Assembly (NCBI GenBank): GCA_949358305.1 | Contig: OX442314.1 | Coordinates: 6,758,001-6,822,000, forward strand | DNA: 64,000 nucleotides | Source of the DNA: Strigamia acuminata | Taxonomy: Eukaryota | Direction: 5' to 3' | Part shown: piece after piece, positions 8,047 through 53,979 of the stretch | How positions within the stretch are numbered: position 1 is the stretch's first letter | Layout: each line of letters opens with the position of its first letter | Notes under the pieces: generated by a model | What the model was told of the DNA's origin: nothing | Database searches by the model: none | What the model saw: only the letters and a program-made list of their open reading frames with translations | Made by a program: the position numbers and the translations under genes

Positions 8047-8895
8047 TTAAACACCCCCCATTTTGGCTTAATTTCCCCCCTAAGTTCAACTTAATTTTCC
8101 CCCAACCAAAACCCCCCAAACTTGACTTCCCCTTATTAATGTATTTCCCCCCCAACCCATTTTAACCCCAATAATTTCGAAGGTACCCCCACGTAATCCC
8201 AATGTTATAACGTCTTCTCACTGTGTACACAAGGCCCTCTTCGCTTTAGCTGGCCGTCCGCGCTTCTTTTTTTGGCCAATGGGAATGGTTTTTGCCTCCA
8301 GTGGCACAACAAGCAAGTTCTCGATAATTGCTATTCCAACAATGTGCTTACAAATGTAAATCTTTGCAAACACGGGGCATGTACAAGTTCCCGTACTCCA
8401 TGCAGCATTTGTAATGCTAACCTGCCACACACTACTTCTCGGGTGTAGGTATGTGTCGAATCGGCGCCAACTTTTCCGCTCCTCTTGACGCAGGTATGTG
8501 TTAACACTGGTGTTGGTTAAATTCGGCTGTCCACCAGGGGTGACATAGTAAAACCTTAACATTATCTTTTCACGGACAATCATGCTAGGTTTTGTTCGTT
8601 TCCAGTTATAACCGTCTGTGTAGTGCTGTAAGGTAACCGTTGGAGTAAGAGCAAACTTCTTGACATTGACAGATTCCATGTGCCTTTCTAAAGACCAACA
8701 TTTCATACGTAGAGGGTGGTAAAAAATTTGTTGGGGGTTTGTTTAAAAATAAATGGGGGTTGTTTGGTTGGGGGGGAAATACTATAATAGGGGAAATTAC
8801 AGTTAGGGGGGTACTTTAGTTTAATTGGGAGAGTTTGGATGGGGGGAAATAAAACCCACTTTAGGGGAAATCTAGCCAAAATGGGGGTTAAATAA
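8047..8895 (-). mobile_element. MULE-like relic: SWIM zinc-finger transposase C-terminus between degenerate inverted repeats
   Basis: ORF 8218-8706 contains CTCPVFAKIYICKH (SWIM) and KKRGRP; C-rich 8047-8175 and G-rich 8722-8895 are imperfect reverse complements (CCCCCATTTTGGCT.ATTTCCCC). Confidence 0.65.
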
Positions 8896-9368
8896 ATAAA
8901 AATAAAGGTGATCAATTAAACCAATCTTACACATTTTCACTTTGAAAGAGCGAAAATTCTTATTAAAAGTATATATTTATTACCATACGGTTTCTTAACT
9001 CATAATCTAAAATAAAAATTCGAATTCGGGGAATGCTGCGGGATTTTCACAACTGGTCAGATCCGCAACTTGTCGAATGGATTTCACGTAGGAAATCTAC
9101 TAGTCCAACTCTTTCTTTAGAATAGTTTTCAACTATTTAGCAATTTAGTCATTATCGTTTTGCGCGTGCCCCGACTTAAGATTCTGCTGTTGGCAGTGGA
9201 TCTCCAGGCTGTGGGTCTCCTAGCAGAAATTACATAACAAAATACTGGTACCTCACGTCTAAGCTGTGATATTTCAACAATTTGTAGCTACTGTTAGAGA
9301 GTTTTGTTACAATATTTAATGTGTTAGAGATTAAGTTGATTTGTGGAACGAGTTTGTTATTATTAATG

Positions 9369-10188
9369 TGTGGTGACCCAGTTGGATAGGTGTCCCCCCA
9401 GGGCGGATACTTGTCCTATGAGTCACTATGATTAAAGAGTCGTTCCCCCCCGAGTTGGCTCCACCTCCCCATGGCAGGTGTGTGCCCCGAGGGGGAGGAA
9501 GCGGCTGGTGGTCAGCCCCCATTGGTTGATCGCCGGCCCTTCACCCCACTGCATAAAAGGCTGTGTTTCCCGCCTAAAGACAGAACTTACACAAACGACA
9601 CCAAGAACACAGCAACTACCTCACCGTCAGGCCAACTTCAACTACAAGTTAGGATTGATCGAGGATCGCTGAGTAAAGTGCAAACTGTAACTCTCACGAA
9701 GTCACTTGCGAGCTATTCCTGCGAAAGCACGAGAATAGCCCTTGTGAAATCACCCAGAATAATCGCCCAGACGATTATTCGCCGAAGTAAGTGTCCGAGT
9801 GCTTTGTAGGGAACCCCAAAGTTCCTAGACGAGGCCTCTGCGACGCTAAACAAACCCTAGACAACAGGCACGGATAGAAGACTCGAAAGAGCATTCCACC
9901 GCGTCCGTGAAGACGAATCCGTGACGAATTAACGACAACTCGAGACGCCGCCTTTGTTCCGCCGACCACGCGGAATCGACGACGCCATCTTGAGAAATCC
10001 TTTGTTCGACGCTGACCACGTCGACTCTAGAATTATTACTGAGTGTATTTTAAAGGCATAAAGCCTGGTGAATAAATTACCTGTTTATTTACATACATTT
10101 GGTATTCATTTGGGTATTTACATAATTGATCACAGGTAAAGTATTACACGTTAGCGCTATTTAAACCTATACCAAGTAGGACGCGACA
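9369..10188 (+). repeat. 5' LTR of the Gypsy element
   Basis: Starts TGTGGTGACC, ends CGCGACA; same length as and apparently identical to 21418-22237 (ORF-track translations of both copies match); TATA-like GCATAAAAG at ~9551 and AATAAA at 10071. Confidence 0.96.
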
Positions 10189-10190
10189 CG

Positions 10191-10208
10191 TGGGGGCCCG
10201 TCCGGGAT
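10191..10208 (+). promoter_or_regulatory. Primer-binding site complementary to the tRNA-Pro 3' end
   Basis: TGGGGGCCCGTCCGGGAT, 2 nt after the LTR; one mismatch to the canonical tRNA-Pro PBS TGGGGGCTCGTCCGGGAT. Confidence 0.92.
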
Positions 10209-10282
10209 TTAGAAATAAATCTCAAATCTGAACTTGTGATCTCTCAATAAGATAACCCAAATCGTAGAATTACCGAAAGAAA

Positions 10283-13200
10283 ATGTCAGACAAAGACGAG
10301 CAATCCACGTCTGAAACCGAGCAGAGAATGCCCGAGAAGGGAAAAAGGACCTCCGACTACCACCTGAGATCGGATGGTCCCGTCCCTGAAATGTCCGCAA
10401 AGGCGAAAGCCCGAGCGAATAAAAGGAGAGCGAAGGCGCAGAAAGAGGAGCAAGCTGCATCGCTCGCGGCCCTAGACGGGCCAGAGCGAGAGCGGGTTCC
10501 CTTGAATATGCAACCCTTCGAAGATACCGATCCGGAAGCCATAGAAAATCGAGAAGAAATTCGCGACGTATCGCCAGGACGAGTATCGATATTGATGACC
10601 GAGGAGACGAATGAAGCTCCGAAAATAACGGTCACGATCGGCACAGACCCATCGCCACCAACGGCTCAGACGTCCGTAAAACAAACCCCACGGAAAAACG
10701 ACGGCGGGACCCCGATAACCCCCCGAGTTACGGCGAGTCCTGCAGTTGTTTCCTTCGAAGTATCTCACCTAATTCGGTTGACGCAGCAAGCTGCCCAGCT
10801 AAAAGCGATGATAGACATTCCAGTAGGAACGTCAGTCTGGGAATCGATTACCCTACTCACTGACGCTATCTGTGCGGCACAAGCCCCGACGCCGGTCGCA
10901 AGACCAGCAGCGGAGACGCCCATGCCCCAGGTAACGCCCAGTGACACCGGAGGTTTCGCGCCAGACCCCAACCGAACACTTCACGAATCCAGAGAGAAGG
11001 CCCGCGAGGAAGCCAGACAAGAAGCGACTAGTCGCCAACGAAGGCTGAGCGCAGAGCGGCGAGAACTCTGGAAGGAAGAGGAAGAAAGGGAGCAACGCGA
11101 GAGAAGAACCACCGAGAGAACAGAGAAACTGGTCCAAAAAATGAGGGAAGAACGAGAAGCTAAAATTCGAAAAGAATGGAACGCAACAGTAGAAGGGCGA
11201 CATCGAGAAGCTCAAGAGTACGAGGACCAATTTCAAGCGCTAATAGCTCAAAGAAAAACAGAAAAACTACAAATGTTGCGAAAAGAGGCCATTCTACAAC
11301 ATCAGAAATGGGAAGAACAACATCGCGAGAGGTTGAGAGAAGAGGAAGCCAGAAAAGAAAAAGAACAGTTTCTGAAAGAGAAAGAAGAGTGGGATCGAGT
11401 CAGATGGACCGAAGAGTACAAAGCGAAGAAACAAGCTATAATAGATGAGCAAAAAAGATGGGAAGCCGAAAACTGGGAGAAGGAGACAGAAAAGTTCCAG
11501 AAAGAGTACGCACAAGACGTCTCGGACAGGAAGAAAAATGAAGAAAACCTGAAACGGAAACCAGAACCCCCCAGCGGCTCTGATACCGACACAGGAGAAG
11601 GTGCAACAAAGCCGGCAAAAACGGCGAAAAGGGGGAAATCTCAAAAGAGAGACGAGTCGGTCCCAAAAACAAAGGACCGTCACCCCTCAAAAAGATCCGA
11701 GACGGGAGCAGCCATCGACGCGTTACTCGAAAAGAAAAACGCAAATAAAAATCGGGAACGCCCCGAAAGCGAGGAAAACAGATGGCATTCTTTTTACGAG
11801 AACAACGACGGAGGGGAGCCGCCGCCATCCGGAGGCTCGAAACAGAAGAAGGCTGGCGGAGAGACCCCACCGAGAGGGCCGAGGTTTCACCCCCAAGGAG
11901 ATCCCTCCGAGCCCTCCGATTCGTCGGACGACGACCATCCGAGTCGACCGTCTACAGGGAGGAGTCAAGAAGACAGCGATGGGCACCGGTCGAACCGGCC
12001 GAATGCTTCAGACCGCTCCTCCCGGAGCTCCAACCCTCGTTCGGAGGAAGGGAACTTTCAGGACTCATCTGGCCGACATTACACGATGTCTGAGCTAGGC
12101 CGAGCCCTGCTGAACTCTTTCAGAAGAGAAGGAATAGATCTAGGCCATCCAGGCGACGAACATAATCGCGCCGGAGAGAGGGTTAAGCGCAAATATGGCG
12201 TACGAAACGAACCAAGCAGCGAAGCCACGGGTAACATCCGTTGGCAACACTACATACAAACACGATTCGACGGTTCGTGGAAGGCCGGAGACCGCTTCCT
12301 AGACGAAGTAATGCGTATCAAGAAAGCGACAAAAGCCACCGTCGCCGACATGCTAACCCACGGTCTAGTGGAGCTAACCACGGGGTCAGCTCGAGAATGG
12401 TATCAGGGACTGAAAAACCCAACCTGGGACGATTTTCTCGTCCGTTTCGATCTCCGATACGGCGAGACTCCAGACGAGATCAGTAACAAATTACGTGGTC
12501 TACGGCAAGCCCCAGGAGAAACATTAGCCGACTACGACGCCCGAGCGAAACTCCTGTTTGCAAGAGCGCCGTACGAAATAAACCCCGCTGGTTTTACGAT
12601 GATCTTTTACGGAGGATTATCGGCCCACTCGCAAAGAATTCTGCTAGACATGCGTGCACCCCGCACTGGCGATTACCAAGATGTCAGTAACTATCTTCTA
12701 ACAAACACGTTAGAAATAGAACAGCGGTATTACGCCACTCTGCCCCCGGAAGAAGCTGACGCGCACGAGAAGCGGTTGCAGACGAGCGCCGAACGCCACA
12801 AGACCTCAGAAAAATTAATGAGGCCAAGTGAATATTTGAGCGGCATAATGAGTCTCACCGAAGCATCCTTCGGACGAATGCTGACGCCTAAAGCAGGCAG
12901 TATTCTTCCAGCCAACCCGATAGCTGCCCCAAAGAAAGCACCGGCAGCGACGGCGATGCAGGTGACCTCGACGGACTCCACCCAGATGGAGAAAGTCGAA
13001 GAGACAACACCTCTCGCCACGGCTAAAGAAGAGGAGCCAGCATCGAGCGACGAGGAAGCCCTAAATGAGCACCTCGAAAACTTATCGACGGGATGCGACG
13101 ATCAAGGTCCCTATTTGCACCATGCACACCGGGCCTTGGCAATCACACAATTCAGAGCACACGTGCAAGCAACAAAAGCGAGAGGAGCATTGGGAGGAAA

Positions 13201-13423
13201 AAGACGATTCCCGACGCCCTTCGTCCCGAAAAAACCGGGATTCACTCCCACAGGGGATAAAAGTAACATCAAATGTTACAGCTGTGGAGAATACGGCCAC
13301 TACTCAGATAAATGTGAGAAAACCGTCAAAGAAAAGGACATCATGCAAACCATGATGAAAATGATGATGGAGTTAAGAACTGATCTGGCAAAAAACTTCC
13401 AAGCGCAGGCGTCGCCGAAATAA
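10283..13423 (+). CDS. gag: Gag polyprotein (1046 aa) with long charged helical N-terminal half, capsid-like region and CCHC zinc knuckle
   Basis: ATG shortly after the PBS; retrotransposon gag-like segment (AREWYQGL..PTWDDFLVRF..LRQAPGETLADY); C-terminal CYSCGEYGHYSDKC = CX2CX4HX4C. Confidence 0.93.
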   Translation: MSDKDEQSTSETEQRMPEKGKRTSDYHLRSDGPVPEMSAKAKARANKRRAKAQKEEQAASLAALDGPERERVPLNMQPFEDTDPEAIENREEIRDVSPGRVSILMTEETNEAPKITVTIGTDPSPPTAQTSVKQTPRKNDGGTPITPRVTASPAVVSFEVSHLIRLTQQAAQLKAMIDIPVGTSVWESITLLTDAICAAQAPTPVARPAAETPMPQVTPSDTGGFAPDPNRTLHESREKAREEARQEATSRQRRLSAERRELWKEEEEREQRERRTTERTEKLVQKMREEREAKIRKEWNATVEGRHREAQEYEDQFQALIAQRKTEKLQMLRKEAILQHQKWEEQHRERLREEEARKEKEQFLKEKEEWDRVRWTEEYKAKKQAIIDEQKRWEAENWEKETEKFQKEYAQDVSDRKKNEENLKRKPEPPSGSDTDTGEGATKPAKTAKRGKSQKRDESVPKTKDRHPSKRSETGAAIDALLEKKNANKNRERPESEENRWHSFYENNDGGEPPPSGGSKQKKAGGETPPRGPRFHPQGDPSEPSDSSDDDHPSRPSTGRSQEDSDGHRSNRPNASDRSSRSSNPRSEEGNFQDSSGRHYTMSELGRALLNSFRREGIDLGHPGDEHNRAGERVKRKYGVRNEPSSEATGNIRWQHYIQTRFDGSWKAGDRFLDEVMRIKKATKATVADMLTHGLVELTTGSAREWYQGLKNPTWDDFLVRFDLRYGETPDEISNKLRGLRQAPGETLADYDARAKLLFARAPYEINPAGFTMIFYGGLSAHSQRILLDMRAPRTGDYQDVSNYLLTNTLEIEQRYYATLPPEEADAHEKRLQTSAERHKTSEKLMRPSEYLSGIMSLTEASFGRMLTPKAGSILPANPIAAPKKAPAATAMQVTSTDSTQMEKVEETTPLATAKEEEPASSDEEALNEHLENLSTGCDDQGPYLHHAHRALAITQFRAHVQATKARGALGGKRRFPTPFVPKKPGFTPTGDKSNIKCYSCGEYGHYSDKCEKTVKEKDIMQTMMKMMMELRTDLAKNFQAQASPK

Positions 13424-16400
13424 ATTCAGCTTCGTCTGCGCCAGCCGCGGAAATTAAAAAGAAGAAATATCACACTGGACCCGCAGGTCATGCCTTGGCA
13501 GAGGCACAGATCAAAGACCGCATACAGATCGTTCCGAAGAAGGAGGAAAAAGTGACGTTAACGAGTATGCAAGTGAGAACGAAACCGGAGGTCGACATGG
13601 ATTGGACGGACCTTCCGTTCAATCTGGAGGTTGAGCCCCAGACATTACGCGTATTTCACTGCAATGTCACGAAAGCACATTGCGAAACTCTGTGTATGCT
13701 GCCAGTGGAGATCGAAAACCAAAAATTGTTCGGTCTGCTGGATTCAGGAGCAGATCGTTCATTCATATCCGAAGATATAGTAAAGGACTTGGATATTGAA
13801 AAAAAGGTGGCACAAGTGAACGCGAACGTAGAATTGCTCACCGCCAACGGCTACGTCAAGCCGAGGGGCGTAGTTCGCATCATGATCGACTGGAAGGGGG
13901 GGAACCTGTCCCACCCCTTCATAGTCTTGCCATCCCACGACAAAGTATTCCTCTTAGGGATGGATATCATGGCAAAACTGAAAATTCAGCCAAACCCGAT
14001 AACCCGTTCATGGAACTGGATAAGTCCCGAGGGAGAACGGCCAGTCCCCGTAGTTCCCCAAAAATTACTGGACGAAGCCAAGGACAAAGAGGAATACGGA
14101 AGAGGATTGCGAAAATTCGTCCAAGATTACGATTTCGCAGCCTTCACTCTGGAATTACAGAGGAGTAACGTCGTGGACACACTGGTCGAGGAGGCAGCAC
14201 TGCGTGTTAACGAGGCATCGCTACTAAGGCGAGTGCTTCGAAAACATGAAAGAATTCTGACCAAGACACCTGGTCGAACGACGGAAGCAACCCACGAAAT
14301 AGTCTTAACCACAGACAAGCCGATTCGAGTGCCTTACAAGGGGATGAACCCCCAGAAAAGAGACATTGTGACGCAGATGTGCCAAGACATGCTCGACAAG
14401 GGCATAGTAACTCAAGCGCTGGGCGAATACGCGATGCGGATCGTCCTGGTAATGCGTCCAGGCTCGGAGCCTCGACTATGCATTGATTATCGCCCCCTGA
14501 ATGCGATAACAGTTATAGACCCGATTCAGATGCCGTCTATAGACTCGATCCTCCGGGAACTGAGCCCGTTCAAGTGGGTAACCACGATGGATCTGTCAAA
14601 GGGGTATTGGCAAGTGGAGCTAAAACCAGAAGACAAACTAAAAACGGCTTTCTACTCCCCGATAGGAAGATTAATGTTCAACGTGATGCCGTTCGGGCTT
14701 GTAAACGCCCCGAGCACGTTCCAGAAATTGATCGAAAGCGTGTTGGGAGATATGCTTCACGACTTCGTGTGGGCGTATCTCGACGACATAATAATAACGT
14801 CGGACACATTCGAAGAGCATATAGACCACATCGACAGAGTGGTCTCTCGCCTAGCCAAGGCGGGACTCCACATCCATCCAGGGAAGAGCAAGTTTTGCAG
14901 AAAAGAGCTTGCCTTCCTAGGATATCGAATAGGAGTCGAGGGAATCGCGATTGACCCCGAAAAGGTCAAAGCAATAAACGGATTCCCCGCCCCCGAAGAT
15001 ATAAAAGGTGTCCAAAGATTCATGGGCATGGTCAATTTCTTCGGCCGACTACTCTCTGGTCTGGCTGAGGTGGCCGCGCCTATAACGGATCTCTTACGAA
15101 CGGATAAAGAGTTTGAGTGGACGGTCCAGTGCGAGGCCGCATTTAGCACTATCAAGCAAATGCTGGCTGACGTCGAAAAGATGCCATTGCCGGACCTAAA
15201 CCGACCGTTCGTGTTGCACACCGACGCGAGTAAAATCGGACTGGGTGCAGCCCTTCTGCAGACCCACGTGTACAACGGAATCTCGCAAGAAGTACCCTGT
15301 ATGTTTATAAGCAGGAAAATACAGGGCGCGGAGAAAAATTACACGGCAACGGAACTAGAATGCCTAGCCGTAATTTGGGCAGTTCGAAAATTTCGCGACT
15401 ATCTGGAGTACACGAACTTCGAGGTTCAGACAGATCACCAGGCACTAAGCTGGTTGATGAAGCTCAAGGAACCTTCCGGCCGACTCGCAAGATGGCAACT
15501 GGAGTTAATGGCGTGCGATATAACAATTACGTACCGCCCCGGGAAGTACAATCATGTGGCCGACGCCCTCTCAAGAGCCCCAGCCTCTGACCCCCAGGGA
15601 CCAGACGACGACGGCGAGGACGACACCCACCTCTTGTACTGCCCAACTCCACGCAGAATATGGCGCTTACGAAAAGCAAACGAACTGCCGGTGATGGAGC
15701 CCGAAGATAGAACGTTTTGTGGTTTTTGGACTCGAACGTACCAGCCAGCTGGGACGAGCGATTCAACGTCCGCAATTCAACCTCCGCCCCCCGGAGAAAC
15801 CCACAAAACACTACTACGCGCCTTCACAGCAAAAATTGAAGAAAAAACGCAATATGCTCCACCCACGAGACGTGAGTTCGTCGAACACCAGGCAGCAGAC
15901 ACAAAATGTCAAATTATAACACAATATTTGCTGAACGGCGAATTTCCGGAAGGGATGACAAACCCACACCGCCGGAAACAGTTCGTCAAAGAAGCAACAA
16001 GCTACCTCATAGATGATGAACTCCTGGTAAAATACCACCCGACATTTCAAGATGACCTCAGTGGAGCGGGAAACTCGGTGAAAGTGGTCGTACCGGCATC
16101 ACTGCACAACCGACTGTTGTGGCTGATGCACGGACACCCGCTCGCCAGCCATTCCGGCATAGCGAGAACCCTTTATCGAGTAAAGCAACTTTTCTTCTGG
16201 CCGGGCGCGCGGCAAAAGATAACGAAATTTATCCGACACTGCCCCCGGTGCCAAGCATGCAGACCGCGAGATAAAGTAGCCAGAAACGCCATGTCTCTCG
16301 GACCCTACGCACCGTTTGACTGCTTAAGCATAGACTTGATGGGCCCCAAGCCCACAACGGGAAACAAGAACATGTATATTCTCGTAATTATGGACGTGGC

Positions 16401-17526
16401 CACCCGATGGCCGGAGCTGTACGCCCTCGCGAAGCCCTCGGCTGAAAACATAGTCGAGTGCCTTTACGACGTGGCAATGCGATTTGGGTTTCCCAGAAAA
16501 CTCATTTCGGATAACGGCCCCCAATTCCGATCAAGAATATATAAGGACTTCTGTAGGAAATTTAAAATGGATGCATCGAACACCTCCACATATAATCCTC
16601 AGACAAACCCAGTCGAGAGATTAAATAAAGATATAAAATATGCGCTGACAGTATTCACCGACATTCACAATCGATGGGACGAATACCTGCGAGAAATCGC
16701 TTTCAGCATTCGCTCAACCGTGTCAAGAACACGCGAATTCTCACCGGCGTACCTCAACTTCGCCCGCGAATTAAGGATGCCATGGGACCCACGCGTTGCC
16801 GAAGCTGTTAACGTATTAGACCCATCGAGCCCACACGAGTACGTGTGCCGGTTGGAACAGACTATATCCGACACATACCAGCATATGATGGCGCATATTT
16901 TCAACATGAGAGAAAGAATCGCAGATAAAGAAGGCGATCTCGCTTTCGCGAACTTTAAAGTGAATGATCTAGTGTGGAAGGAAGCACACACGTTGTCCAA
17001 TGCAGCGAGGGGCATCGCCGCAGGTTTAGCCGACAAGAGGGACGGTCCCTATGTAATTGTGGCCGAACACGGCGGCAACGCATACCAACTACGCCGCTTA
17101 GAGGACAACAAAAATTTTCAGTCGATACATGGCCGAGATTTAAGGCCATATCTGCCAGAGTTTCCCCAAGAAATCTGGCTGGAAGGTCAGACACACAGCG
17201 GCCAAGGGGGCACCGTGGTCGACACGTTCCAAAAAACAAATGAAGCTGAAAATATAGCGGAGGACGAGGATGAATTCTTCGACGCCGAATCTCCGGCCGA
17301 CGAGGCTCCAGCACAGCCGGAGCAAGCAATTTCGGAGAGGGAGGAAGCAGAAGAATGTACTTCTGAAATGGAAAATAAAAAAATTAATAATGAGAAAAAT
17401 GCCAACACATCGGAGATGAACGAGCAAGTAGAGTCACGATCTACGAGCACGTCGAAAATCAACCTTCGACCACGACGAAGCAATAATCCGTTCATTCGGG
17501 ACGGCAAAGTCGTGGGGAAGAACTAA
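13384..17526 (+). CDS. pol: Pol polyprotein (protease, reverse transcriptase, RNase H, integrase with GPY/F), expressed by -1 frameshift from gag
   Basis: Frame opens after TGA at 13381-13383 and overlaps gag in the -1 frame; LLDSGA (protease), YLDD (RT), LHTDAS (RNase H), H..H..CPRC plus SIDLMG/SDNGPQF/VERLN (integrase), RDGPY. Confidence 0.96.
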   Translation, partial: SGKKLPSAGVAEINSASSAPAAEIKKKKYHTGPAGHALAEAQIKDRIQIVPKKEEKVTLTSMQVRTKPEVDMDWTDLPFNLEVEPQTLRVFHCNVTKAHCETLCMLPVEIENQKLFGLLDSGADRSFISEDIVKDLDIEKKVAQVNANVELLTANGYVKPRGVVRIMIDWKGGNLSHPFIVLPSHDKVFLLGMDIMAKLKIQPNPITRSWNWISPEGERPVPVVPQKLLDEAKDKEEYGRGLRKFVQDYDFAAFTLELQRSNVVDTLVEEAALRVNEASLLRRVLRKHERILTKTPGRTTEATHEIVLTTDKPIRVPYKGMNPQKRDIVTQMCQDMLDKGIVTQALGEYAMRIVLVMRPGSEPRLCIDYRPLNAITVIDPIQMPSIDSILRELSPFKWVTTMDLSKGYWQVELKPEDKLKTAFYSPIGRLMFNVMPFGLVNAPSTFQKLIESVLGDMLHDFVWAYLDDIIITSDTFEEHIDHIDRVVSRLAKAGLHIHPGKSKFCRKELAFLGYRIGVEGIAIDPEKVKAINGFPAPEDIKGVQRFMGMVNFFGRLLSGLAEVAAPITDLLRTDKEFEWTVQCEAAFSTIKQMLADVEKMPLPDLNRPFVLHTDASKIGLGAALLQTHVYNGISQEVPCMFISRKIQGAEKNYTATELECLAVIWAVRKFRDYLEYTNFEVQTDHQALSWLMKLKEPSGRLARWQLELMACDITITYRPGKYNHVADALSRAPASDPQGPDDDGEDDTHLLYCPTPRRIWRLRKANELPVMEPEDRTFCGFWTRTYQPAGTSDSTSAIQPPPPGETHKTLLRAFTAKIEEKTQYAPPTRREFVEHQAADTKCQIITQYLLNGEFPEGMTNPHRRKQFVKEATSYLIDDELLVKYHPTFQDDLSGAGNSVKVVVPASLHNRLLWLMHGHPLASHSGIARTLYRVKQLFFWPGARQKITKFIRHCPRCQACRPRDKVARNAMSLGPYAPFDCLSIDLMGPKPTTGNKNMYILVIMDVATRWPELYALAKPSAENIVECLYDVAMRFGFPRKLISDNGPQFRSRIYKDFCRKFKMDASNTSTYNPQTNPVERLNKDIKYALTVFTDIHNRWDEYLREIAFSIRSTVSRTREFSPAYLNFARELRMPWDPRVAEAVNVLDPSSPHEYVCRLEQTISDTYQHMMAHIFNMRERIADKEGDLAFANFKVNDLVWKEAHTLSNAARGIAAGLADKRDGPYVIVAEHGGNAYQLRRLEDNKNFQSIHGRDLRPYLPEFPQEIWLEGQTHSGQGGTVVDTFQKTNEAENIAEDEDEFFDAESPADEAPAQPEQAISEREEAEECTSEMENKKINNEKNANTSEMNEQVESRSTSTSKINLRPRRSNNPFIRDGKVVGKN
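13390..13441 (+). promoter_or_regulatory. -1 programmed ribosomal frameshift signal (A AAA AAC plus downstream stem)
   Basis: Slippery heptamer at 13390-13396 in the correct gag phase (GCA AAA AAC), 6-nt spacer, stem GCGCAGGCG (13403-13411) / CGTCTGCGC (13433-13441), inside the gag/pol overlap. Confidence 0.85.
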
Positions 17527-17906
17527 AAATAAAAGAAAATGTGATAACATGGAGCGGAGGCCTTGTAAAATAAAAAGATTTACTTACGAGAGCTGCTGCA
17601 CATGTTGAAACGCGAAAATTTGGCTAAGTCCAAACTTCGCAACGAATTGTCGCAGTCACCACTAACAGACGAGAAGTTATGACGTATCGGGCGACCACGT
17701 GACAATGAAACCACGCGGTCGACCCCGTAGCGTCATTGCCAGCACGGCGGATCTCGCAAAATACGAGACGCGTTCGAGACCCACAATTCTCAGCGTCGAT
17801 AGGCCCAGTTTCCGACTGTTTTTAACACGACGAGACGTGTTTTTGCTTCTCCCCCAAAGAGAAAGACAAAGACCTCTCAAACAAAACTTCATTTTCCTAA
17901 ATTGAA

Positions 17907-18023
17907 ATGGCCGATCGACGCAACCCACGATTAGAGCCGAGCGCATCGTCGAGAGACGAGAGCGACGGCCTAATCGTAAATGCAGAAGACGATGAGAATT
18001 GGGACGAACAACCGCCGTTGCAG
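17907..18023 (+). CDS. Putative first coding exon of ORF3 (MADRRNPRLEPSASSRDESDGLIVNAEDDENWDEQPPLQ)
   Basis: ATG in strong context (GAAATGG); 39 codons ending CAG|GTAAAT, a phase-0 donor that joins in frame to the 18584 acceptor, giving ~967 aa. Confidence 0.55.
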
Positions 18024-18583
18024 GTAAATTAGTGTGATTTCCCCAGAGAAATCACATAATTCTTTGAATCTGTTGCATCCAACCCAGATTGGAGCGTGAC
18101 TTGTGACTGATATATTTCTTTCTGTTTTATTATTGATTTAAGGCTGGCTAAAAACCCGAGAGTGGACCCAGATTCACCTCGGAGTCAAGGCCGCCAAAAA
18201 ACTAGAACAAAGGAAGTGTTCGCGGAATGGCGTCGTGGCAAACCAAAACCAAAACTAAAGGTTTTCTTTCTTTTAAAATTAAACATCGTAATAAATTAAA
18301 ATACGATTAGAGTTAAAATAAAAAGTTTAACGTAATATTAAGAATTTAACGATCGGTTTTGCCTGCGACCCCTTCCTAAAAAGCGGATCACCTGAGTTCA
18401 AAGGTAGTGTTGGATCAGCGCTACGACGGCGGAGATCATCGCAGAACTGCGAAACAAGAAAATAAGACCGACGGCCGCAACAAAAGAAAGGAGTTGCTGC
18501 CACCGTCGATCTTGAGCATATTTCTGATCCCCATCGTTAAACTGGGATTTATTATATTAATCTTGTGATCTAAAATTATTCAG

Positions 18584-21370
18584 GTCGACCCGCTAGAATC
18601 GTGGGACGCCCTGCCTTCGACGGTGTCAACCGCCAACAACATCTTTCGCGGAGCCCTGCCGATTTACCTGCGGCAGGCCTATCCTGCAGAGACCAGCGCC
18701 TGGAAAATCCGATTGATGTACTCCAGGACCCTCGAGGAAAAATTCGAGCGATCGAAAACGCTGGTCGAGTGCATGACGAAGGAGATGAGGGAGCGAGTGG
18801 GGCCGCGGATCCCACCCGATGCGGATCCGCCGAGCCCCGTTTACTCCGGGTACCTGGAAGAGGCTTACCCAGGCACGGTGGCCGAGCTGCACACCTCCCA
18901 CAGGTGGAGCGAGGCCCCGACCTTGGCAGCCCGCCAGAAAATAGTGGACGACGAGATCGAACGCTTAAAGCGCACCGAGACTCACGGAGTAACCCGAGTT
19001 CTCGAGAGAAACGGTTTCTCCCCCGAAGAAATCCGTAGATGGCTTCGCGACATCGAAGAAGACCATTTGACACCCAGATGGATACCACCGGCGAATTTTA
19101 CGGCCACGCAGTCTGAGATGTGGCAGTTATACCACGCTGGTATCCTGGGAAGTCGCCGCCATCACAGAAGATCGAAGCGTCCGGCGGAGTCCGCCCCACG
19201 CGGACCCGCACGAAGAAGACAGGCCGTCTCCCCAACAGAGGCCGGCCCGTCAACGAGTCGCGACTACCGCAGCCGCTCGAGCAGCTCCAGTTCCCGAACT
19301 CGAGTTGTCGTGCGCTCGGAGTGTCGCCGAGTAGTAACGCTCGAGCCTGCCTCGCCAGACGACGCGCGGGCTGAGCGAACGGTCGAATCTTCCGCCCACT
19401 GGGCTGCGAGGACCGAGACACACCAAGATCGAGGAAAGAAAAGATCCTCGTTGTTTATGGCGATTACCACACAGTCGTCAGATCAATCCTCGTCGCGACG
19501 AACCGTCTCAACACACCAGAGACCGGATTCCCCGACGGACGTCCCCCAGAGGACGGTCCAACAAAGATCCGTCGCAGCCAACACCAGGAGGAATCGGAAG
19601 CGTAAAGTACGACAGAAGACGCGTGCGCGGTCTCTGATCGCGAAAGGATTGGAGAAAGAGCGAGAGATGGCCGCCGCAAAAAGGTCCGAACCCCGAAGTC
19701 TCGGATCCGCGGCTGGGCCGTCCAGGCTCCAGGCAGAGATTGATTTGGGAGAATTGACGGAAGAACAAATATCCCAAGAAGAGTCGGACAAGGATGGACC
19801 GGTCACGAAACAAGATCTGGCCATGGCATTGAAGAACGCCTTCCGAGGATACGCGGCCAACCGGCCGTCGGGCTCAACACCGGCTGTGCCCACCGCGCTT
19901 GTGCCCCCACAGGTGCAATCGCGATGGCCGCCACTCCTCGAGGGTACAAACCCAGCAGTGACCACGTGGACCCCTCCCCGGATGATTCCGGTGGGAGATC
20001 CAACTCCCAAACGGGTCAGATACGACGACCTACCAGGGATGGGCCGTCCACCGTCACCCCCGACGCCACGAGTGTACCATCCTCATCGCAACGCCGAGTG
20101 GTACGCGCAGCGGGGGATGGACGCCAGATGCCGGCGTGAAGCGGCCTATCCCTCACTCAGCGAGTTACAAGAATATCTGGCCGAATACGAGAACCCCGCG
20201 ATTGCCGAGTTGGCCATACGACAGGCCGACGCCGCCCAAACTCACCACATCAACTGGGCGATCGAACAGATGCGGACGTTGTCACAGCAATTCAGTGACA
20301 ATCCGGACCGCGCTCACCCCTGCCATCGGAGCAGTTTGAATTTGGCTGTGACGAACGTACTGGCCCAGCTGCTATCCCTGGGCGTCTTCTTGGACAGTCG
20401 GCAAGCTATGGCGGCCTGGACAATCGTCGACCGTGAGGGAGTTCACCTTCCTCGGGCGTTGTACCAGGTATGGGCCGGATGGACTCCTGAGCCCGCCTCG
20501 CTGCGCTTCGACCTGGCCAGAAATACGGAAAACCCAGGCCTACAGTTTTCAAAGATGCGTTCGTTAGCATTCCGCTACCGGAACCCCGGAGTCCACCCTT
20601 CCTTGTTGCGAACAATTCGGGAGGTTCCGGAGATACCGGGAACGGCGGCGAGCCTTCCACAGGCCATCGAGACCGCCCCCCCAGAGGCGGCGGTCCAACC
20701 ATACATACCGACCCCAAAGCCGGTATTCCCGAAGGAGAAGCGACACGCGAATCGACCCATATTGATTCCGAAGCGTTCCAAGCGAGGACCCCGAACTCCT
20801 CCGCTGCCCTCTCCTTCACCACCAGCGGCAGGGCTGGCCGCTCTCTCTGCAGAGCCGGCTACGCCACCGTTGGAGAGCCCAATGGAGATTCCGCTCCCAC
20901 CATCGCCTCCGCCGCCCCCAGCAGCGCAGCTTTATTTGAGGCTGGGAGTGGAATACCCCTTCCTTCAGATGTCGGAGTTCACGCGACAACGCATCATTGA
21001 CTCCGACGATCACGGCGAATCAATCCTCAAATGGCTAAACAGAGAAGCCCGATCCACCATGGACGCCGTCTTCCATCGCCGTATCCTACGGGCCCACAGG
21101 AAACCCGGATCGAGCGCCGAGTCGCGAAGGATCCGACTCGTCCCCGATCGATTCCCCGCGTCTACCCGGATTTGGATCCATGAGCGTACGGGGTTGGTTG
21201 GCGAGCCAGCCGGCAGTCACCCGCAGTACTTCATCAACGAGCGACAAAATCCTGCGGATCTGACAACCTCTCTGCCCCCGGATTTACCACCGCCGCCACC
21301 GGCAGTGCCACCCGTGATCCTCCGCCCATGCAGAGGAGTGCTGCCGGCTCTTCGCAGAGGAGAGCGATGA
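18584..21370 (+). CDS. ORF3 main exon: large Arg/Ser/Pro-rich accessory protein of unknown function, not Env-like
   Basis: Stop-free frame from 18569 to TGA at 21370; the ORF track starts it at a GTG (18623); TTATTCAG acceptor at 18583 is in phase 0; no signal peptide or TM helix visible; basic clusters (RRHHRRSKR, RRNRKRKVRQK). Confidence 0.85.
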   Translation, partial: VDPLESWDALPSTVSTANNIFRGALPIYLRQAYPAETSAWKIRLMYSRTLEEKFERSKTLVECMTKEMRERVGPRIPPDADPPSPVYSGYLEEAYPGTVAELHTSHRWSEAPTLAARQKIVDDEIERLKRTETHGVTRVLERNGFSPEEIRRWLRDIEEDHLTPRWIPPANFTATQSEMWQLYHAGILGSRRHHRRSKRPAESAPRGPARRRQAVSPTEAGPSTSRDYRSRSSSSSSRTRVVVRSECRRVVTLEPASPDDARAERTVESSAHWAARTETHQDRGKKRSSLFMAITTQSSDQSSSRRTVSTHQRPDSPTDVPQRTVQQRSVAANTRRNRKRKVRQKTRARSLIAKGLEKEREMAAAKRSEPRSLGSAAGPSRLQAEIDLGELTEEQISQEESDKDGPVTKQDLAMALKNAFRGYAANRPSGSTPAVPTALVPPQVQSRWPPLLEGTNPAVTTWTPPRMIPVGDPTPKRVRYDDLPGMGRPPSPPTPRVYHPHRNAEWYAQRGMDARCRREAAYPSLSELQEYLAEYENPAIAELAIRQADAAQTHHINWAIEQMRTLSQQFSDNPDRAHPCHRSSLNLAVTNVLAQLLSLGVFLDSRQAMAAWTIVDREGVHLPRALYQVWAGWTPEPASLRFDLARNTENPGLQFSKMRSLAFRYRNPGVHPSLLRTIREVPEIPGTAASLPQAIETAPPEAAVQPYIPTPKPVFPKEKRHANRPILIPKRSKRGPRTPPLPSPSPPAAGLAALSAEPATPPLESPMEIPLPPSPPPPPAAQLYLRLGVEYPFLQMSEFTRQRIIDSDDHGESILKWLNREARSTMDAVFHRRILRAHRKPGSSAESRRIRLVPDRFPASTRIWIHERTGLVGEPAGSHPQYFINERQNPADLTTSLPPDLPPPPPAVPPVILRPCRGVLPALRRGER

Positions 21371-21400
21371 GAAAATTGAGATCGCTCCGATCCGAGATCG

Positions 21401-21417
21401 AAGCTGGAGGAGGGACG
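21401..21417 (+). promoter_or_regulatory. Polypurine tract (plus-strand primer) of the Gypsy element
   Basis: AAGCTGGAGGAGGGACG immediately upstream of the 3' LTR TG. Confidence 0.75.
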
Positions 21418-22237
21418 TGTGGTGACCCAGTTGGATAGGTGTCCCCCCAGGGCGGATACTTGTCCTATGAGTCACTATGATTAAAGAGTCGTTCCCCCCC
21501 GAGTTGGCTCCACCTCCCCATGGCAGGTGTGTGCCCCGAGGGGGAGGAAGCGGCTGGTGGTCAGCCCCCATTGGTTGATCGCCGGCCCTTCACCCCACTG
21601 CATAAAAGGCTGTGTTTCCCGCCTAAAGACAGAACTTACACAAACGACACCAAGAACACAGCAACTACCTCACCGTCAGGCCAACTTCAACTACAAGTTA
21701 GGATTGATCGAGGATCGCTGAGTAAAGTGCAAACTGTAACTCTCACGAAGTCACTTGCGAGCTATTCCTGCGAAAGCACGAGAATAGCCCTTGTGAAATC
21801 ACCCAGAATAATCGCCCAGACGATTATTCGCCGAAGTAAGTGTCCGAGTGCTTTGTAGGGAACCCCAAAGTTCCTAGACGAGGCCTCTGCGACGCTAAAC
21901 AAACCCTAGACAACAGGCACGGATAGAAGACTCGAAAGAGCATTCCACCGCGTCCGTGAAGACGAATCCGTGACGAATTAACGACAACTCGAGACGCCGC
22001 CTTTGTTCCGCCGACCACGCGGAATCGACGACGCCATCTTGAGAAATCCTTTGTTCGACGCTGACCACGTCGACTCTAGAATTATTACTGAGTGTATTTT
22101 AAAGGCATAAAGCCTGGTGAATAAATTACCTGTTTATTTACATACATTTGGTATTCATTTGGGTATTTACATAATTGATCACAGGTAAAGTATTACACGT
22201 TAGCGCTATTTAAACCTATACCAAGTAGGACGCGACA
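21418..22237 (+). repeat. 3' LTR of the Gypsy element
   Basis: Direct repeat of 9369-10188 at offset 12049; preceded by a purine tract and followed by the AATG TSD. Confidence 0.96.
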
Positions 22238-22532
22238 AATGTTGAGTTGAATTGCATTGTGGGATTGATGATTGCATAAAGCGGGCACGAATGAGCTTTT
22301 AGAAGGAAAATAGACTTTTATCTGAGCTACAAAAGTTAGTAGAAGAAGGAGAAGAAAGTGCATCAAGCAGCAGTGAGGAAGAGAGCACATCAAGCAGCAG
22401 TGATAATAGAAAAAGCAAAACGAATAGCAGTGAGGAAACCACATCAGGCAGTAGTAGCGATTACGACCACAAGATGGCGCCACAAACGACAACAGAGGAG
22501 GAATTCCAGCACTCACCCACAACAACTTTGCT

Positions 22533-24763
22533 ATGTGGGCGTGCAGATTGGAGGACAGATTAAGAGGCAAAAAATTATGGAAAAGTGTAATATTGGAGGG
22601 CGAACCACCTAAAAGCCAGGTGAAAGGAGATGATGCTGACAAGAAGTGGAATGAATATGATGACAAAAATGCCAAAGCCAAGATGATAATGATTGACAAT
22701 ATGTGTGAATCCAAGCAAATGATCAACATGCATGAGCGCAGTGCAAAAACATTGTGGCAACAAATAGAAACAGACATGCAGAGCACCGCTGAGAGAACCA
22801 AACTAGAGGCACACCATGAAGTCACACACATAACAATGCAGAAAAATGAAACCATTGATGAGTATTGCAACAGAGCGCAGGGACTCAGACAGTGCTTTTT
22901 GCAAGCTGGGGGAAAGATGGAGGAAACCGAATTGATTTTCCACATCAAAAATGGATTAAGAAGGTAATTTCAAAATGCAAAGGAAGCATTAAATTTCCAA
23001 ACTGGCATAAAAATGGCCGATTTGAGAAGCTGACTAAAGCTGTGCAAAGGAGAAAAACAAAATAACGAAAAAAAAACCACAGAGAACATACAAAAAGCCA
23101 GAGAGAACAGAAATATAATTTGCTATAATTGCTCAGGCAGGGGCCATTACAAAAGAGATTGTCGCAGCAAGCAAAAATGTTATAATTGCGGACGCCCAGG
23201 GCATTTGATAGCAGACTGCAAAGATGAGCAAAAACCGGAAAGTGACAGCAACAGAGGTCGTGGCAGAGGAAAAGGAAACTTTGGAAACCGAGGAAGAGGA
23301 AGAAGGCAGAAACAAAACGTGATGACAGCTGTTGAGAAGCCAAACAAGCATATTTGTGAAGAAATAGCTGAAACAATATGGAAAACTGAATTTAAGAGAA
23401 ACAAAGATGACGACCTGATCCCACATGAAACTTTAGTTGCAACAGGGCGAAAAATTAAGATATGCAACTGTATGGAAAATGATAAAGAATTGAAAGTAGA
23501 AAGATCTATGATGGTTGCATTTGCAGCAAAACACGGAAAACTCGTACGATTACACAACGTAAAAACAGCGTATTTGAACGCAAAATTTAAGGAAAAAATA
23601 TGGATGTAACAACCCGATGTATTCAAGGAAAAAGGGAGAGAAGATGAAGTTTGCTATTTGATACGAAGCGTATATGGACTAAAACAAAGTGGACGGACTT
23701 AGAATGAGCTGATTGACCAAATATTGAAATCAATGAGACTAAAGCAATCCAAGGATGATGATTGATGAATGCTTGTATTATATATTCATTGAAGTAGATT
23801 ATATGATAATTGGATTACACGTGGATGACATGTTATCAGTGGCTAGCAACATAACATTTGAAAACAAGATTTTGGAAAAACTAAGAAAAGCAGTAAATCT
23901 AGTTACCCTAGGAGACGCAAAGACTGTTTTAGGAATGCAACTAGAACAAACAGAAGGAAAAAAATTTTGTGCATCAGAAAGCTTACGTACAGAAATTACT
24001 GGAAATGTACAGCCTAGACAAATGCAACGGCGCAAAGTCACCGGGAGAACCAAACCAAAACATTGACAAATGCCAAGAAAGCAAAAAAACGGATAGGAAA
24101 ATGCATCAAGAACTGTTAGGAAGATTACTATACTTGGCAACACACACCAGATCAGACCTAAGTTTCACGTTTGGAAATTTATCGCGTTACAACCAAGAAC
24201 CGAGAGAGATACATCTGGAAGGATTAAAAAGAGTTCTACGTTATCTCAAATGAACTGAAAATTATGGCATCACGTACGGAAGCGAAAGGAAAACATTAGA
24301 AGTATTTACTGATGCTAGCTGGGATAGAACGTTGGACAGCAAATCATTTTCAGGATTATTAGTTTTATATGGTAAAGATTTAATACATTGGAAATCAAAG
24401 AAGCAGAAATTCGTAGCACAATCAACGAACGAAAGCGAATTGGAAGCATTTCATGAAGGCATCAAAGAACTGATCTGCCACAGAGATTTAATTGAGGATT
24501 TGAATAAAGAAGATTTGCAGAGAAAAGGAAAAATTTATTGTGACAGTTTGAATGTGATAACACTAATGACTAAAGGGACGCACAAGATGCAAACAAAATT
24601 TTTAAATAGAAGAGTTAATTTGGCTAAAGACCTGATTACAAGTCAAGAAGTGGAAGTCGAACATATTCCAGGAAAAGAGCAATTAGCGGATTTCTTAACC
24701 AAGAATTTATCCGGAGTGAAGATCAAAGAAGTTATGAACATTTTAATGAACAGTAGTGTTTGA
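22533..24763 (+). pseudogene. Copia gag-pol remnant (gag, two zinc knuckles, RT, RNase H; protease/integrase apparently deleted)
   Basis: Gag-like 22533-22967; [14 protein letters not shown] and [14 protein letters not shown] at ~23120-23220; Copia RT motifs [23 protein letters not shown]; RNase H FTDASW and QLADFLTK; multiple stops and frameshifts. Confidence 0.88.
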
Positions 24764-24819
24764 ATTATTGAAAGTGTTGTTTTAAGTGTTTGAATAATTA
24801 TAATAACAAGAGGGGGATT

Positions 24820-25053
24820 TGTTAGAGAGTTTTGTTACAATAATTAATGTGTTAGAGATTAAGTTGATTTGTGGAACAAGTTTGTTATTATTAATGTTGA
24901 GTTGAATTGCATTGTGGGATTGTTAGAACTTGATGATTGTTGGTGAAAATCAGTGCAAGCGCTTGTGTGTAATTTGGAACCATTTGGACAATATACCAGT
25001 TTGTTTGTTTATCAAAATGCGGATGTGTGGACATTTATTTAAGAAAACTAACA
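24820..25053 (+). repeat. 3' LTR of the Copia element (234 bp)
   Basis: TGTTAG...CTAACA terminal inverted repeat; matches 9292-9368 plus 22238-22274; shows the uninterrupted site TTAATGTTGAG. Confidence 0.85.
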
Positions 25054-27229: not shown

Positions 27230-28199
27230 CTTCAGTATTATTGATTTGGAATAGTCGGCTCGGCCAATGGGAGAAGGCCACTTATTTGAGTTGAACAAGA
27301 GTATAGTTGTTGCATATCGTATGCGCCATTTGTACTACATAATTTGAATAATACATACCTTATCATTGTACAGTGGGTTGCTATGAGATCGTCCTCTAGC
27401 AACCCACTCCATTCTTCTACAATAAACAATTAGTCGACTCACAAAATCAATCCGAACAGTCAAGTCCTTCTTTACTGGCCAGTAGGCCCAAACGAAGATG
27501 TTCTATGACGACCAGAACCCCACAATGGCCCGAATCCAAATCCAATAGACTCATCACTACTATGTTACGTCTATCAATAGGTTTATTTCTACGATTTACA
27601 CAATACTACAAATTGTGTATTTCAGGTGCACAACTAAGGTATTTTTCTCTTCAAGTTCTTGAGATGTGCTCTGCTGGGATCCGAGGCCATTCCCAGCAGA
27701 GGCACTTCAGAAATGAAGAGAGAAAGTGCATGTGAAAGGTTGATATTAGATACTAAAACAGTTGTGATAAAAGTAATGTTTTGAATGAAAAATTTTACAT
27801 TTTACATTTATATACAAACAAGATTAAATAAAATTAATTAATTCAGTGAAAATCACTTTTTGAATGTAACTGGTGTGTTAATGTTCTTTCAGATGTTAAA
27901 TGTTAATGATACTCAACTAGTGTATTTGTGTATTTAAGAACGCGAAAAAAAAGTCTGCATTGATGTGTATTGCCATATACATTTTATTGGAAGCAAATTT
28001 TCTAATGCAGAATGAGAACCAAGAATAATGCACAGGCACAATGTGAGGACTTTTAGCGTTACTCAGGCATAATGTGAGAACCGTACACAGAACACCACAA
28101 TTGTGCTACTAAATCTACCACAGAATACCAAAATTGTGGTTCTAAATCTGCCACAGAACAGGAAATCTTTATGATAAAGAGAGGGGACTCATTTTTGTA

Positions 28200-29764
28200 A
28201 GGTGCGCGCCATAAGTATGGAATAATCAGTTTTTTTATAATATTTTTTTTTACGCTTCATCTAGAATCAAACCAATTTTTTAATCCATGTATTTTATCTT
28301 TTGAATTCGTTTAAAATCAACAAGTTTATAATTTTTCTAGAAAAATAAATTTGGCAGTGATTTTACACAAAAATGGGGGTGACATAAGTATGGAATATTT
28401 CAGGTTTGATGCAAAAAAATGAATAAAATTAATGTCACCTAACATGCCTTTGTCTGATTAGTTAATCAGTGAATATGTCATCAATTTTCTGCCATTTTTA
28501 AATTGTATTACTTGCTATTTTCTTATTTTGAAGCCATCCCTTATACAAAACTTGCAACCACTGTGGAAATCGCTGAAATAAAGCGATTAAAGTCACTGGG
28601 CCTCTCCAAACAGCAAATCCATAGAAGATCAGGAAGAAATTAATCAATTATATCAAAAGCCCTAACCCAAAGATGAAAATCAAATATGGAAGCAAGACGG
28701 GGAGGATCAAAAGTGACCATGCAGCAAGTTGACAGGAATATTTTGTGCCTGGCACTGACTCTGCTGTTGTCTGCAAATGAAATTTGCACACATGTAGATG
28801 TAATTGTATCTTTAGCAAACAATTCAAAGCAGACTAAACAATTGTGATCACCTCTGTTATAAAAAATAGCTGTACAACTGTGGTTAACTGAAGTCCATAA
28901 ATTGAAGTGCTCTGATTAGACTAATACCAAGCTGCCCTGGACCAAATCATGAAACTGGGTGCTTTTTACAGACAAAATACAGTTCAACTTAGATGGTCTG
29001 GATGGTTAGTGTAATAAATGGCAAGATTTAAGGAGAGAAGAGAAGTTTTCTCAATGGGCAGAATCAAGTGATGGTTTGGGTGACATTCGGGCGAAAAATA
29101 CAGGCAATCATCATAATAATGAAAGGATGGAAAGATTCACAGAAGTATAAGGAAGTGTTGAACATGCATTTATTGCCATTTGGATGGAAAATTGTGGCAA
29201 TAAATGGGTGTTTCAGCAAGACAATGCTCACTGCATGGTCACTTTTGGTCTTCCCTGTCTGCTTTCACATTTGGATTTCATGTTTTGGTTAGAATTTTTT
29301 ATGCAATTGACTAATTTCTTTCAATTTCTTCCTAATCTTCTATCAATTTGTTGTTTGGCGAGCCCCAGTGCCTTTAATCGCTTTATTTCAGCGATTTCCA
29401 CAGTGGTTGCAAGTTTTGTACAAGGGATGGCTTCAAAATAAGAAAATAGCAAGTAATACAATTCAAAAATGGCAGAAAATTGATGACATATTCACTGATT
29501 AACTAATCAGACAAAGGCATGTTATGTGATATTAATTTTATTTATTTTTTTGCATCAAACCTGAAATATTCCATACTTATGTCACCCCCATTTTTGTGTA
29601 AAATCACTGCCAAATTTATTTTTCTAGAAAAATTATATACTTGTTAATTTTAAACGAATTCAAAGGACAAAATACATGGATTAAAAAATTGGTTTGATTC
29701 TAGATGAAGCGTAAAAAAAAATATTACAAAAAAACTGATGATTCCATACTTATGGCGCGCACCT
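28200..29764 (+). mobile_element. Defective Tc1/mariner (Tc3-like) element with ~525-bp inverted arms
   Basis: TA-flanked termini AGGTGCGCGCCATAAGTATGG / CCATACTTATGGCGCGCACCT; internal fragments WVLFTD..FNLDG.DG, VMVW, WVFQQDNA with stops. Confidence 0.85.
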
Positions 29765-29889
29765 TATCTCAATTTATTTTTTGAGATTGCAAATGTAGTT
29801 AAAATAATAATATCGCATTTGCCCTCACAATTCATGCTGGTTGCTTGCAATTGGCTGCCAGATAGGTTTTTTTTAATGAATTATTACTT

Positions 29890-33508: not shown

Positions 33509-53979
<20,471 letters not shown>

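Follow-up and report, generated by a model that had tools for sequence, protein, structure and literature searches.

A stretch of 64,000 nucleotides of Strigamia acuminata DNA (contig OX442314.1; the whole stretch is called the window here, and all coordinates are positions in it, on the forward strand unless stated otherwise) contains a complete Ty3/Gypsy retrotransposon at 9369-22237, with gag and pol both open. Behind pol, in the env position, the element carries a third open reading frame (ORF), called ORF3 here. It is a maintained accessory gene in a recently inserted, high-copy Ty3/Gypsy family, and very probably encodes a real, functional protein. Judged by its sequence, ORF3 is not Env; non-Env ORFs in the env slot are known already, and ORF3 is an orphan gene of that published category. 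The protein is probably nuclear. The reading that we prefer, with a probability of about 0.4, is by analogy with the nematode protein CERV and with Rev: ORF3 would be a nuclear RNA-binding factor that promotes the export of unspliced gag-pol RNA, or its escape from splicing. An earlier note on this DNA had proposed a nuclear or RNA-binding regulator, and that is still the best reading, one that draws on composition and analogy, with neither a homolog nor a fold match behind it.

The pol gene ends at 17526. It is followed by a spacer of 1057 nt (17527-18583), in which GC-rich exon-like and AT-rich intron-like blocks alternate, and by the main frame of ORF3, 933 codons without a stop (18569-21370) at 60% GC, compared with about 50% for gag-pol. 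The earlier note had described a GC-rich, stop-free sense frame beyond the pol stop, and this description is correct. At the composition of ORF3, an open frame of 933 codons has a chance of about 4e-13, and 2000 shuffles yielded at best an ORF of 467 aa. Each of the remaining five frames is interrupted by 12-23 stops. An antisense gene over ORF3 was considered and rejected, the longest minus-strand frame being only 199 aa. Codon usage correlates with that of gag-pol most strongly in the ORF3 frame (0.64 versus 0.41 and 0.30).

Copies of the element were sampled from two sequencing runs of one study, in which the family appears as thousands of short contigs rather than as whole copies; every one of the 30 bins is covered, both for the element and for ORF3. 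Codon-level counts were made on the 40 best-supported of 193 ORF3 variants, and comprise 19 synonymous and 21 nonsynonymous changes with no stops, where 12.4 synonymous changes and 1.5 stops are expected for the same substitution types (p=0.02; pN/pS 0.49). Read in the two shifted sense frames, the same 40 variants give only 9 and 10 synonymous changes. Among the best 40 of 586 variants across the whole element, the synonymous share is 15/16 in pol, 4/8 in gag and 6/14 in ORF3. Indels are scarce: at a share of at least 1%, the 2787 nt of ORF3 show a single one (1 nt at 21190, in one contig at about 2% depth), whereas of the best 12 of 13 indel rows with a share of at least 5%, 9 fall in the 1057 nt of the spacer. 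By length this contrast has a p of 9e-6; it is inflated because AT-rich homopolymers make the spacer prone to indels. Two indel rows, at 21369, both retain a stop codon. Over 2250 nt, the seven diverged contigs found in run X2 (81-88% identity) differ by 350 substitutions, with 6 gap letters. ORF3 is therefore under moderate purifying selection, comparable to that on gag. The earlier note had argued that an intact frame in a young element is probably maintained and had named disruption in related copies as a refutation; in the copies sampled the frame is held open.

ORF3 is likely to be expressed through splicing, with an N-terminus that varies by model, since the predicted sites rank high and the spacer alternates between GC-rich and AT-rich blocks. 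The sites were scored with an untrained consensus and ranked among the 477 donors and 900 acceptors of the element. The predicted donor at 18024 and the predicted acceptor at 18142 each rank first, the acceptor at 18583 ranks ninth, and a further spacer acceptor lies at 17859. Strong donors are also predicted in the long terminal repeat (LTR) at 9787 and 10136 (ranks 3 and 5). The candidate 5' exons of ORF3, 17907-18023 and 18143-18260, are hydrophilic. Unspliced, the frame starts at its first ATG, 18716, and gives 884 aa. The earlier note had put the product at about 970 aa in one frame, which has to be corrected: a product of 967 aa requires the predicted splice that joins 18023 to 18584, which is one path among the 136 that stay in frame when 13 donors, 14 acceptors and 6 ATGs are combined. 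One of these paths would give a 1144-aa fusion of Gag(1-216) to ORF3, the phase-0 donor in gag at 10931 being in frame with the ORF3 acceptor.

The ORF3 product is strongly basic, with a net charge of +34 and about 12% each of Arg and Pro. A basic, Ser/Arg-rich disordered region bears Arg clusters at aa 196-203 and 340-356, the latter with 10 K/R within 17 residues, and there are Ser-rich and poly-Pro tracts and a Pro-rich linker, much as the earlier note had described. Short patterns include two bipartite patterns resembling a nuclear localization signal (NLS), 24 RS/SR and 19 SP/TP sites, and a Leu pattern resembling a nuclear export signal (NES) at aa 594-608. The five Cys are scattered (aa 68, 252, 521, 585 and 921), and there are one N-glycosylation sequon and four RxK/RR sites. 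In a hydropathy scan, the predicted frame has neither a signal-like stretch at its N-terminus nor an anchor at its C-terminus. On these two features the scan agrees with the earlier note, although the protein does have one hydrophobic 19-mer (aa 590-608, Kyte-Doolittle 1.75), which is internal and coincides with a helix of a predicted bundle.

The AlphaFold model of whole ORF3, made without an alignment, has a predicted local distance difference test (pLDDT) score of 41, with 736 of 933 residues below 50, although single-sequence models score low anyway. It contains low-confidence helical blocks at aa ~20-190, 335-369, 505-685 and 815-845, and there is a small C-terminal block at aa ~790-890. 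When aa 500-690 were modelled alone the pLDDT was 54.6, with moderate confidence only for aa ~540-636, which are predicted to form a three-helix bundle. No specific fold match came out of the modelling. Of the AYP repeat reported in that note, a YLxxAYP pair survives a control for pattern searching (p ~0.02), but the signal is weak: an aromatic tripeptide occurs three times in 22% of shuffles, and the two N-terminal segments align over only 7 residues. A true tandem domain repeat behind the motif was rejected.

The searches for relatives of ORF3 were word-seeded or profile-based, so that a blank result does not prove absence. Pfam gave no family at E 1 for ORF3 whole or by block, and in particular no Env or fusion glycoprotein, a match that the earlier note had named as fatal to its proposal. 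No relative was found in PHROGs and NCBIfam (best E 0.05), in the PDB sequences, in the ESM Atlas (whole ORF3 and aa 500-690), or in the JGI metagenome and IMG/VR contigs. A word search of 5.8 billion proteins found none among 7988 candidates of 513-1633 aa, and none among 7992 candidates of 30-512 aa searched with residues 480-900; it took in neither longer proteins nor, for residues 1-479, short matches. The earlier note had proposed a tblastn search to collect related elements; among 86 pol-related loci no relative of ORF3 was found (tblastn on the loci; blastp and phmmer on 15 downstream ORFs; the ORF of locus L054). A comparison of ORF3 with the Gag of its own element shows no relationship (p 0.13). 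Foldseek with the whole model gave template modelling (TM) scores below 0.1, at which the herpes ICP4/ICP27-like rows are not meaningful, and with the ORF3 domain its best E was 0.13. The best VIA matches of the bundle have Z 7.9 (root-mean-square deviation, rmsd, 2.9 over 94 aligned) and 7.5 (rmsd 2.1 over 72 aligned). As modelled, the bundle matches generic helical bundles, none of which stands out. This fold search effectively covered aa ~540-640, and the N- and C-terminal blocks barely. No description of the family of this ORF was found in the literature, where a text search cannot recognise an unnamed protein; Repbase lay outside its scope.

The best single-copy matches to the pol of the element are about 45% identical over reverse transcriptase (RT) and RNase H (RH). 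The phylogeny, built without named reference elements, puts the element with the Logan protein P0057 (FastTree 0.94, 118 sequences, 3 dropped for short coverage; 99.4/100 in an IQ-TREE tree of RT plus integrase (IN), 45 sequences, 2 dropped). The placement that the earlier note had called for is thus one relative to the fetched loci. The pair falls inside a 15-member clade (95/89; with L054, L004, relatives of a tick element), L054 belonging to the clade next to the element. The F-Env-bearing loci L020, L082, L083 and L084 form a separate clade (99.3/100), and the pol of the element falls outside it. The C-terminal motif of the integrase resembles the Osvaldo-like group, to which the element may belong.

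Of the 86 loci fetched, 66 have an integrase match, and the scan of downstream ORFs took in 30 from these loci. Four match Baculo_F, two a 3'-5' exonuclease and two a GDSL lipase, with no match for the other 22; several of the related loci thus carry other non-Env ORFs. The exonucleases are RNase D/Rrp6-like and lie after pol in L054 (13975-15309, with HRDC) and L041 (2490-3893, a weak match). They are homologous to each other (E 2e-22), and neither resembles ORF3. Because the integrases of L054 and L041 are among the closest to that of the element, these sequences suggest that elements in this part of the tree have a variety of non-Env genes in the env slot. LTR pairs enclosing the downstream ORFs of L054 and L041 were not detected, so that the membership of these ORFs in elements is unproven.

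Among known systems, the closest parallel to ORF3 is CERV of the Ty3/Gypsy element Cer1 of C. elegans. According to the available part of its description, CERV occupies the same env slot, is translated from an RNA of five exons that has exons in common with gag, is a nuclear protein and is needed for the genomic RNA to be exported. It has 517 aa, with a leucine zipper common to Gag, a ring-forming M domain that bears a Cys finger, and a G-protein-like domain at the C-terminus, and no homolog outside nematodes is recorded there (PMC10309623). ORF3 resembles CERV in its position after pol and may resemble it in being made from a spliced message, an analogy only, drawn from descriptions. It differs in its length (884-1200 aa by model), in being rich in Arg, Pro and Ser, and in having no Cys cluster. 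Cer1 also has gag-pol in a single frame, whereas the Strigamia element uses a -1 overlap. In our literature search CERV was the sole case found of a trans-acting export protein in Gypsy elements.

Rev and Rex are small proteins of vertebrate retroviruses, HTLV Rex being grouped with Rev as a like regulator. No sequence or fold match of ORF3 to either was found. The proposal does share the logic of HIV Rev, in so far as this is set out in the part of PMC10309623 consulted, namely a spliced message, an Arg-rich motif with a Leu-rich export-like motif, and a structured cis RNA. Errantivirus Env, of F or gB type in the accessible text of PMC13524379, is like ORF3 in lying after pol and probably being expressed from a spliced RNA. 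Unlike it, the ORF3 frame has no signal peptide, ectodomain or C-terminal anchor, and its pol lies outside the sampled F-Env clade. The earlier note had started from the premise that the third ORF of Gypsy elements is normally Env or absent, which does not hold: non-Env ORF3s are published (PMC10309623, PMC5408684, PMC6431247, each available in part), and the last of these reviews extra ORFs. Juno and Vesta elements of bdelloid rotifers carry DEDDy exonuclease and GDSL esterase ORF3s, at least in the portion available (PMC5408684). These are, as here, family-specific captured ORFs in the env slot, and ORF3 matches neither enzyme family. Both enzyme types are seen after pol in the fetched loci, the exonuclease in L054 and L041 and GDSL in L005 and L069; these four served as controls and match, whereas ORF3 has no DNA_pol_A_exo1 or GDSL match. 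Drosophila 412 is described, in the part of the preprint consulted, as having an sORF1 that is nuclear and an sORF2 that resembles a fusogen (bioRxiv 10.1101/2025.03.14.642691).

A candidate cis element is available in the predicted R region of the 5' LTR. Stable stem-loops at 9690-9950, identified by folding z-scores, have z -4.63 on the sense strand (0 of 200 shuffles as good) and -1.74 on the antisense strand, with no match in Rfam. Across the element (9560-21417), the mean z of 79 sense windows is -1.47, and 12 of the 79 lie below z -3, the structure being most pronounced in the predicted R region. For comparison, a neighbouring Copia element has a mean z of 0.08 (16 windows) and a host exon 0.15.

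The CERV/Rev-like layout, the basic, Arg-rich product and the structured R-region RNA are the reasons for the export or splicing-escape reading. Every mechanistic step is taken from composition, gene layout and analogy. Since strong predicted donors lie upstream of gag and ORF3 is preceded by strong predicted acceptors, we propose that splicing by default would join the LTR donors to the acceptors just before ORF3, yielding the ORF3 message and removing gag-pol. The Arg-rich tracts may then carry the protein into the nucleus and bind structured RNA of the element, the R-region stem-loops being one candidate, while the helical blocks may oligomerise or recruit export factors. Full-length RNA would accumulate in this way and allow synthesis of Gag-Pol and packaging.

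A number of observations weigh against this proposal. Simple retroviruses and errantiviruses splice env and yet export full-length RNA without a Rev-like protein, and splicing therefore does not require one. No homolog, family or specific fold ties ORF3 to any export factor, and the Cys finger of CERV's M domain has no counterpart in it. The NLS, NES and RS patterns are short ones of a kind frequent in basic, disordered proteins, and the NES-like stretch sits inside the predicted helical bundle. The antisense strand of the element likewise folds more stably than its shuffles (mean z -1.09), so that the structure signal is not peculiar to one element. The best-scoring intron, 18024-18142, on its own terminates the frame from the ATG at 17907 after 41 codons, which leaves the gene model unsettled. 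Selection on ORF3 is much weaker than on pol, the evidence for it is drawn from a single study with two runs and from the best 40 of 193 variants, and in one diverged contig ORF3 carries a gap of net 4 nt.

The strongest competitor, though in our view unlikely, is that ORF3 works in the nucleus as an activator of transcription or as an anti-silencing factor, acting on the LTR, host chromatin or the PIWI-interacting RNA (piRNA) machinery; the models for a transactivator would be foamy-virus Tas and HTLV Tax. The basic tracts, the Pro- and Ser-rich disorder and the small helical blocks fit such a protein equally well, and a young, high-copy family would benefit from escaping silencing. There are precedents in VANC, an anti-silencing protein of plant DNA transposons (PMC13547354, in the part available), and in the nuclear sORF1 of 412 as the same preprint partly describes it (bioRxiv 10.1101/2025.03.14.642691). 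However, ORF3 has no DNA-binding Pfam family at E 1 and no zinc finger, and the proven precedent in the animal Gypsy slot, CERV, works on export and not on transcription.

Less probable again is a cytoplasmic cofactor of ribonucleoprotein or particles, a disordered basic scaffold that would condense the genomic RNA with Gag or prevent its decay. Its predicted disorder and its charge would suit ORF3 to this role, and the RNase D/Rrp6-like exonuclease in the env slot of related elements points to RNA handling; against this, ORF3 has NLS-like patterns, and Gag already has a long charged extension. It is improbable that ORF3 is captured or recent GC-rich sequence with no useful protein, kept open by the youth of the family and by constraint on the RNA. 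The identical LTRs, a pN/pS of only ~0.5 from 40 variants, the higher GC content, the element-wide RNA structure and the diverged contig with its gap would all be compatible with such a passenger. But the synonymous excess is confined to the ORF3 frame among the sense frames, and a constraint acting on the RNA would be expected to reduce the synonymous share rather than increase it; moreover there are no stops, indels are nearly absent up to 15% divergence, and the stop codon survives two indels. Finally, it is very improbable that ORF3 encodes a membrane protein, or one for transfer between cells, that has gone unrecognised, such as a divergent Env or a FAST-like fusogen, for although it has the env position, the hydrophobic 19-mer, the RxK/RR sites and unmodelled 5' exons that could contribute a signal peptide, in Pfam it matches neither Baculo_F nor any other Env family, while 4 of 30 downstream ORFs of the fetched loci do match Baculo_F, and its single sequon, 5 Cys, missing C-terminal anchor, hydrophilic candidate exons and pol outside the F-Env clade all speak against it.

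To our knowledge, the nuclear exit and the silencing escape of unspliced LTR-retrotransposon RNA are understood for few elements. If the export reading is right, ORF3 would be a second, unrelated-looking protein in the CERV slot, here of a very active family, and retrovirus-style accessory regulation would arise repeatedly without an envelope. A more far-reaching claim is doubtful: that an arthropod Gypsy lineage has independently evolved the circuit of a complex retrovirus, with a multi-exon orphan nuclear protein of ~1000 aa and a new fold, a response element in the R region and a switch from spliced to full-length RNA, as the second invention of the Rev/CERV type in a retrotransposon. The exonuclease in the slot of the neighbouring clade suggests that the env position is a cassette for RNA-handling functions. 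If ORF3 is instead a weakly constrained passenger, it is one more orphan ORF3. The intact copy with identical LTRs eases reporter testing.

The remaining parts of the element are those of a young, intact Ty3/Gypsy insertion, as the earlier note had held. A 4-bp target-site duplication (9365-9368 and 22238-22241) flanks LTRs of 820 bp each (9369-10188 and 21418-22237), which begin with TG and end with CA and show 0 mismatches over their full alignment. The U3, R and U5 limits are predicted; a TATA-like box at 9552 and AATAAA at 10071 point to a long R region of ~500 nt. Two nt inward of the left LTR is a primer-binding site (10191-10208), which we take to be of the tRNA-Pro type, and a polypurine tract (21400-21415) ends 2 nt before the 3' LTR. 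The gag gene (10283-13423, 1046 aa) has a long charged N-terminal half, a region that looks capsid-like by eye and one CCHC knuckle, whose zf-CCHC match in Pfam (E 0.002) is weaker than the curated cut-off. The pol gene (13384-17526, 1380 codons) has the Pfam order protease, RT, RH, IN and lies in the -1 frame relative to gag, with a slippery heptamer at 13390-13396 in the overlap. The length of Gag is unusual: ahead of the capsid-like region stand ~600 aa (10283-12100) that are charged, disordered and coiled-coil-like.

Some of the fetched loci deserve mention in their own right. L054 has an extra orphan ORF of 386 aa, rich in Pro, Lys and Arg, at 12505-13662, ahead of the exonuclease. A separate family of GC-rich, Pro/Arg-rich ORF3s occurs in L047 (6209-7195), L034 (2168-3118), L052 (5338-6420), L037 (7723-9267) and L061 (6755-8137), with an N-terminal C2H2-like finger, no Pfam match and, for L047, L034 and L052, Cys clusters at the C-terminus. 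Those of L047 and L034 are homologous (E 6e-32), and their RTs cluster together; the five are candidate nuclear regulators with an alignable family. In L005 (7329-10189) and L069 (4835-7596), the GDSL lipase ORF is followed by an Env-like ORF of ~715 aa, with no Pfam match and, by eye, a signal-like start and a C-terminal anchor.

Elsewhere in the window, the Gypsy element sits within a decayed Copia element (9292-9368 and 22238-24920), in its left LTR; the short LTRs of that Copia element, the left one split by the insertion, have pieces identical at 76/78 and 30/30. The remnant of a SWIM-finger ORF (8218-8742, minus strand) lies inside 81-nt inverted repeats at 8111-8812, and is probably a Mutator-like relic. 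Near-perfect long inverted repeats at 33729-34766 and 28198-29766 (501 nt at 99%, 444 nt at 96%) are probably foldback elements or resemble miniature inverted-repeat transposable elements, and a TTAGG-like array is also present. Host exons lie at 44144-46135 (minus strand), 54845-55360 (plus) and 58563-62552 (minus); one is dispatched-like, and the others presumably belong to a C1-domain kinase resembling protein kinase D and to a PH-domain protein.

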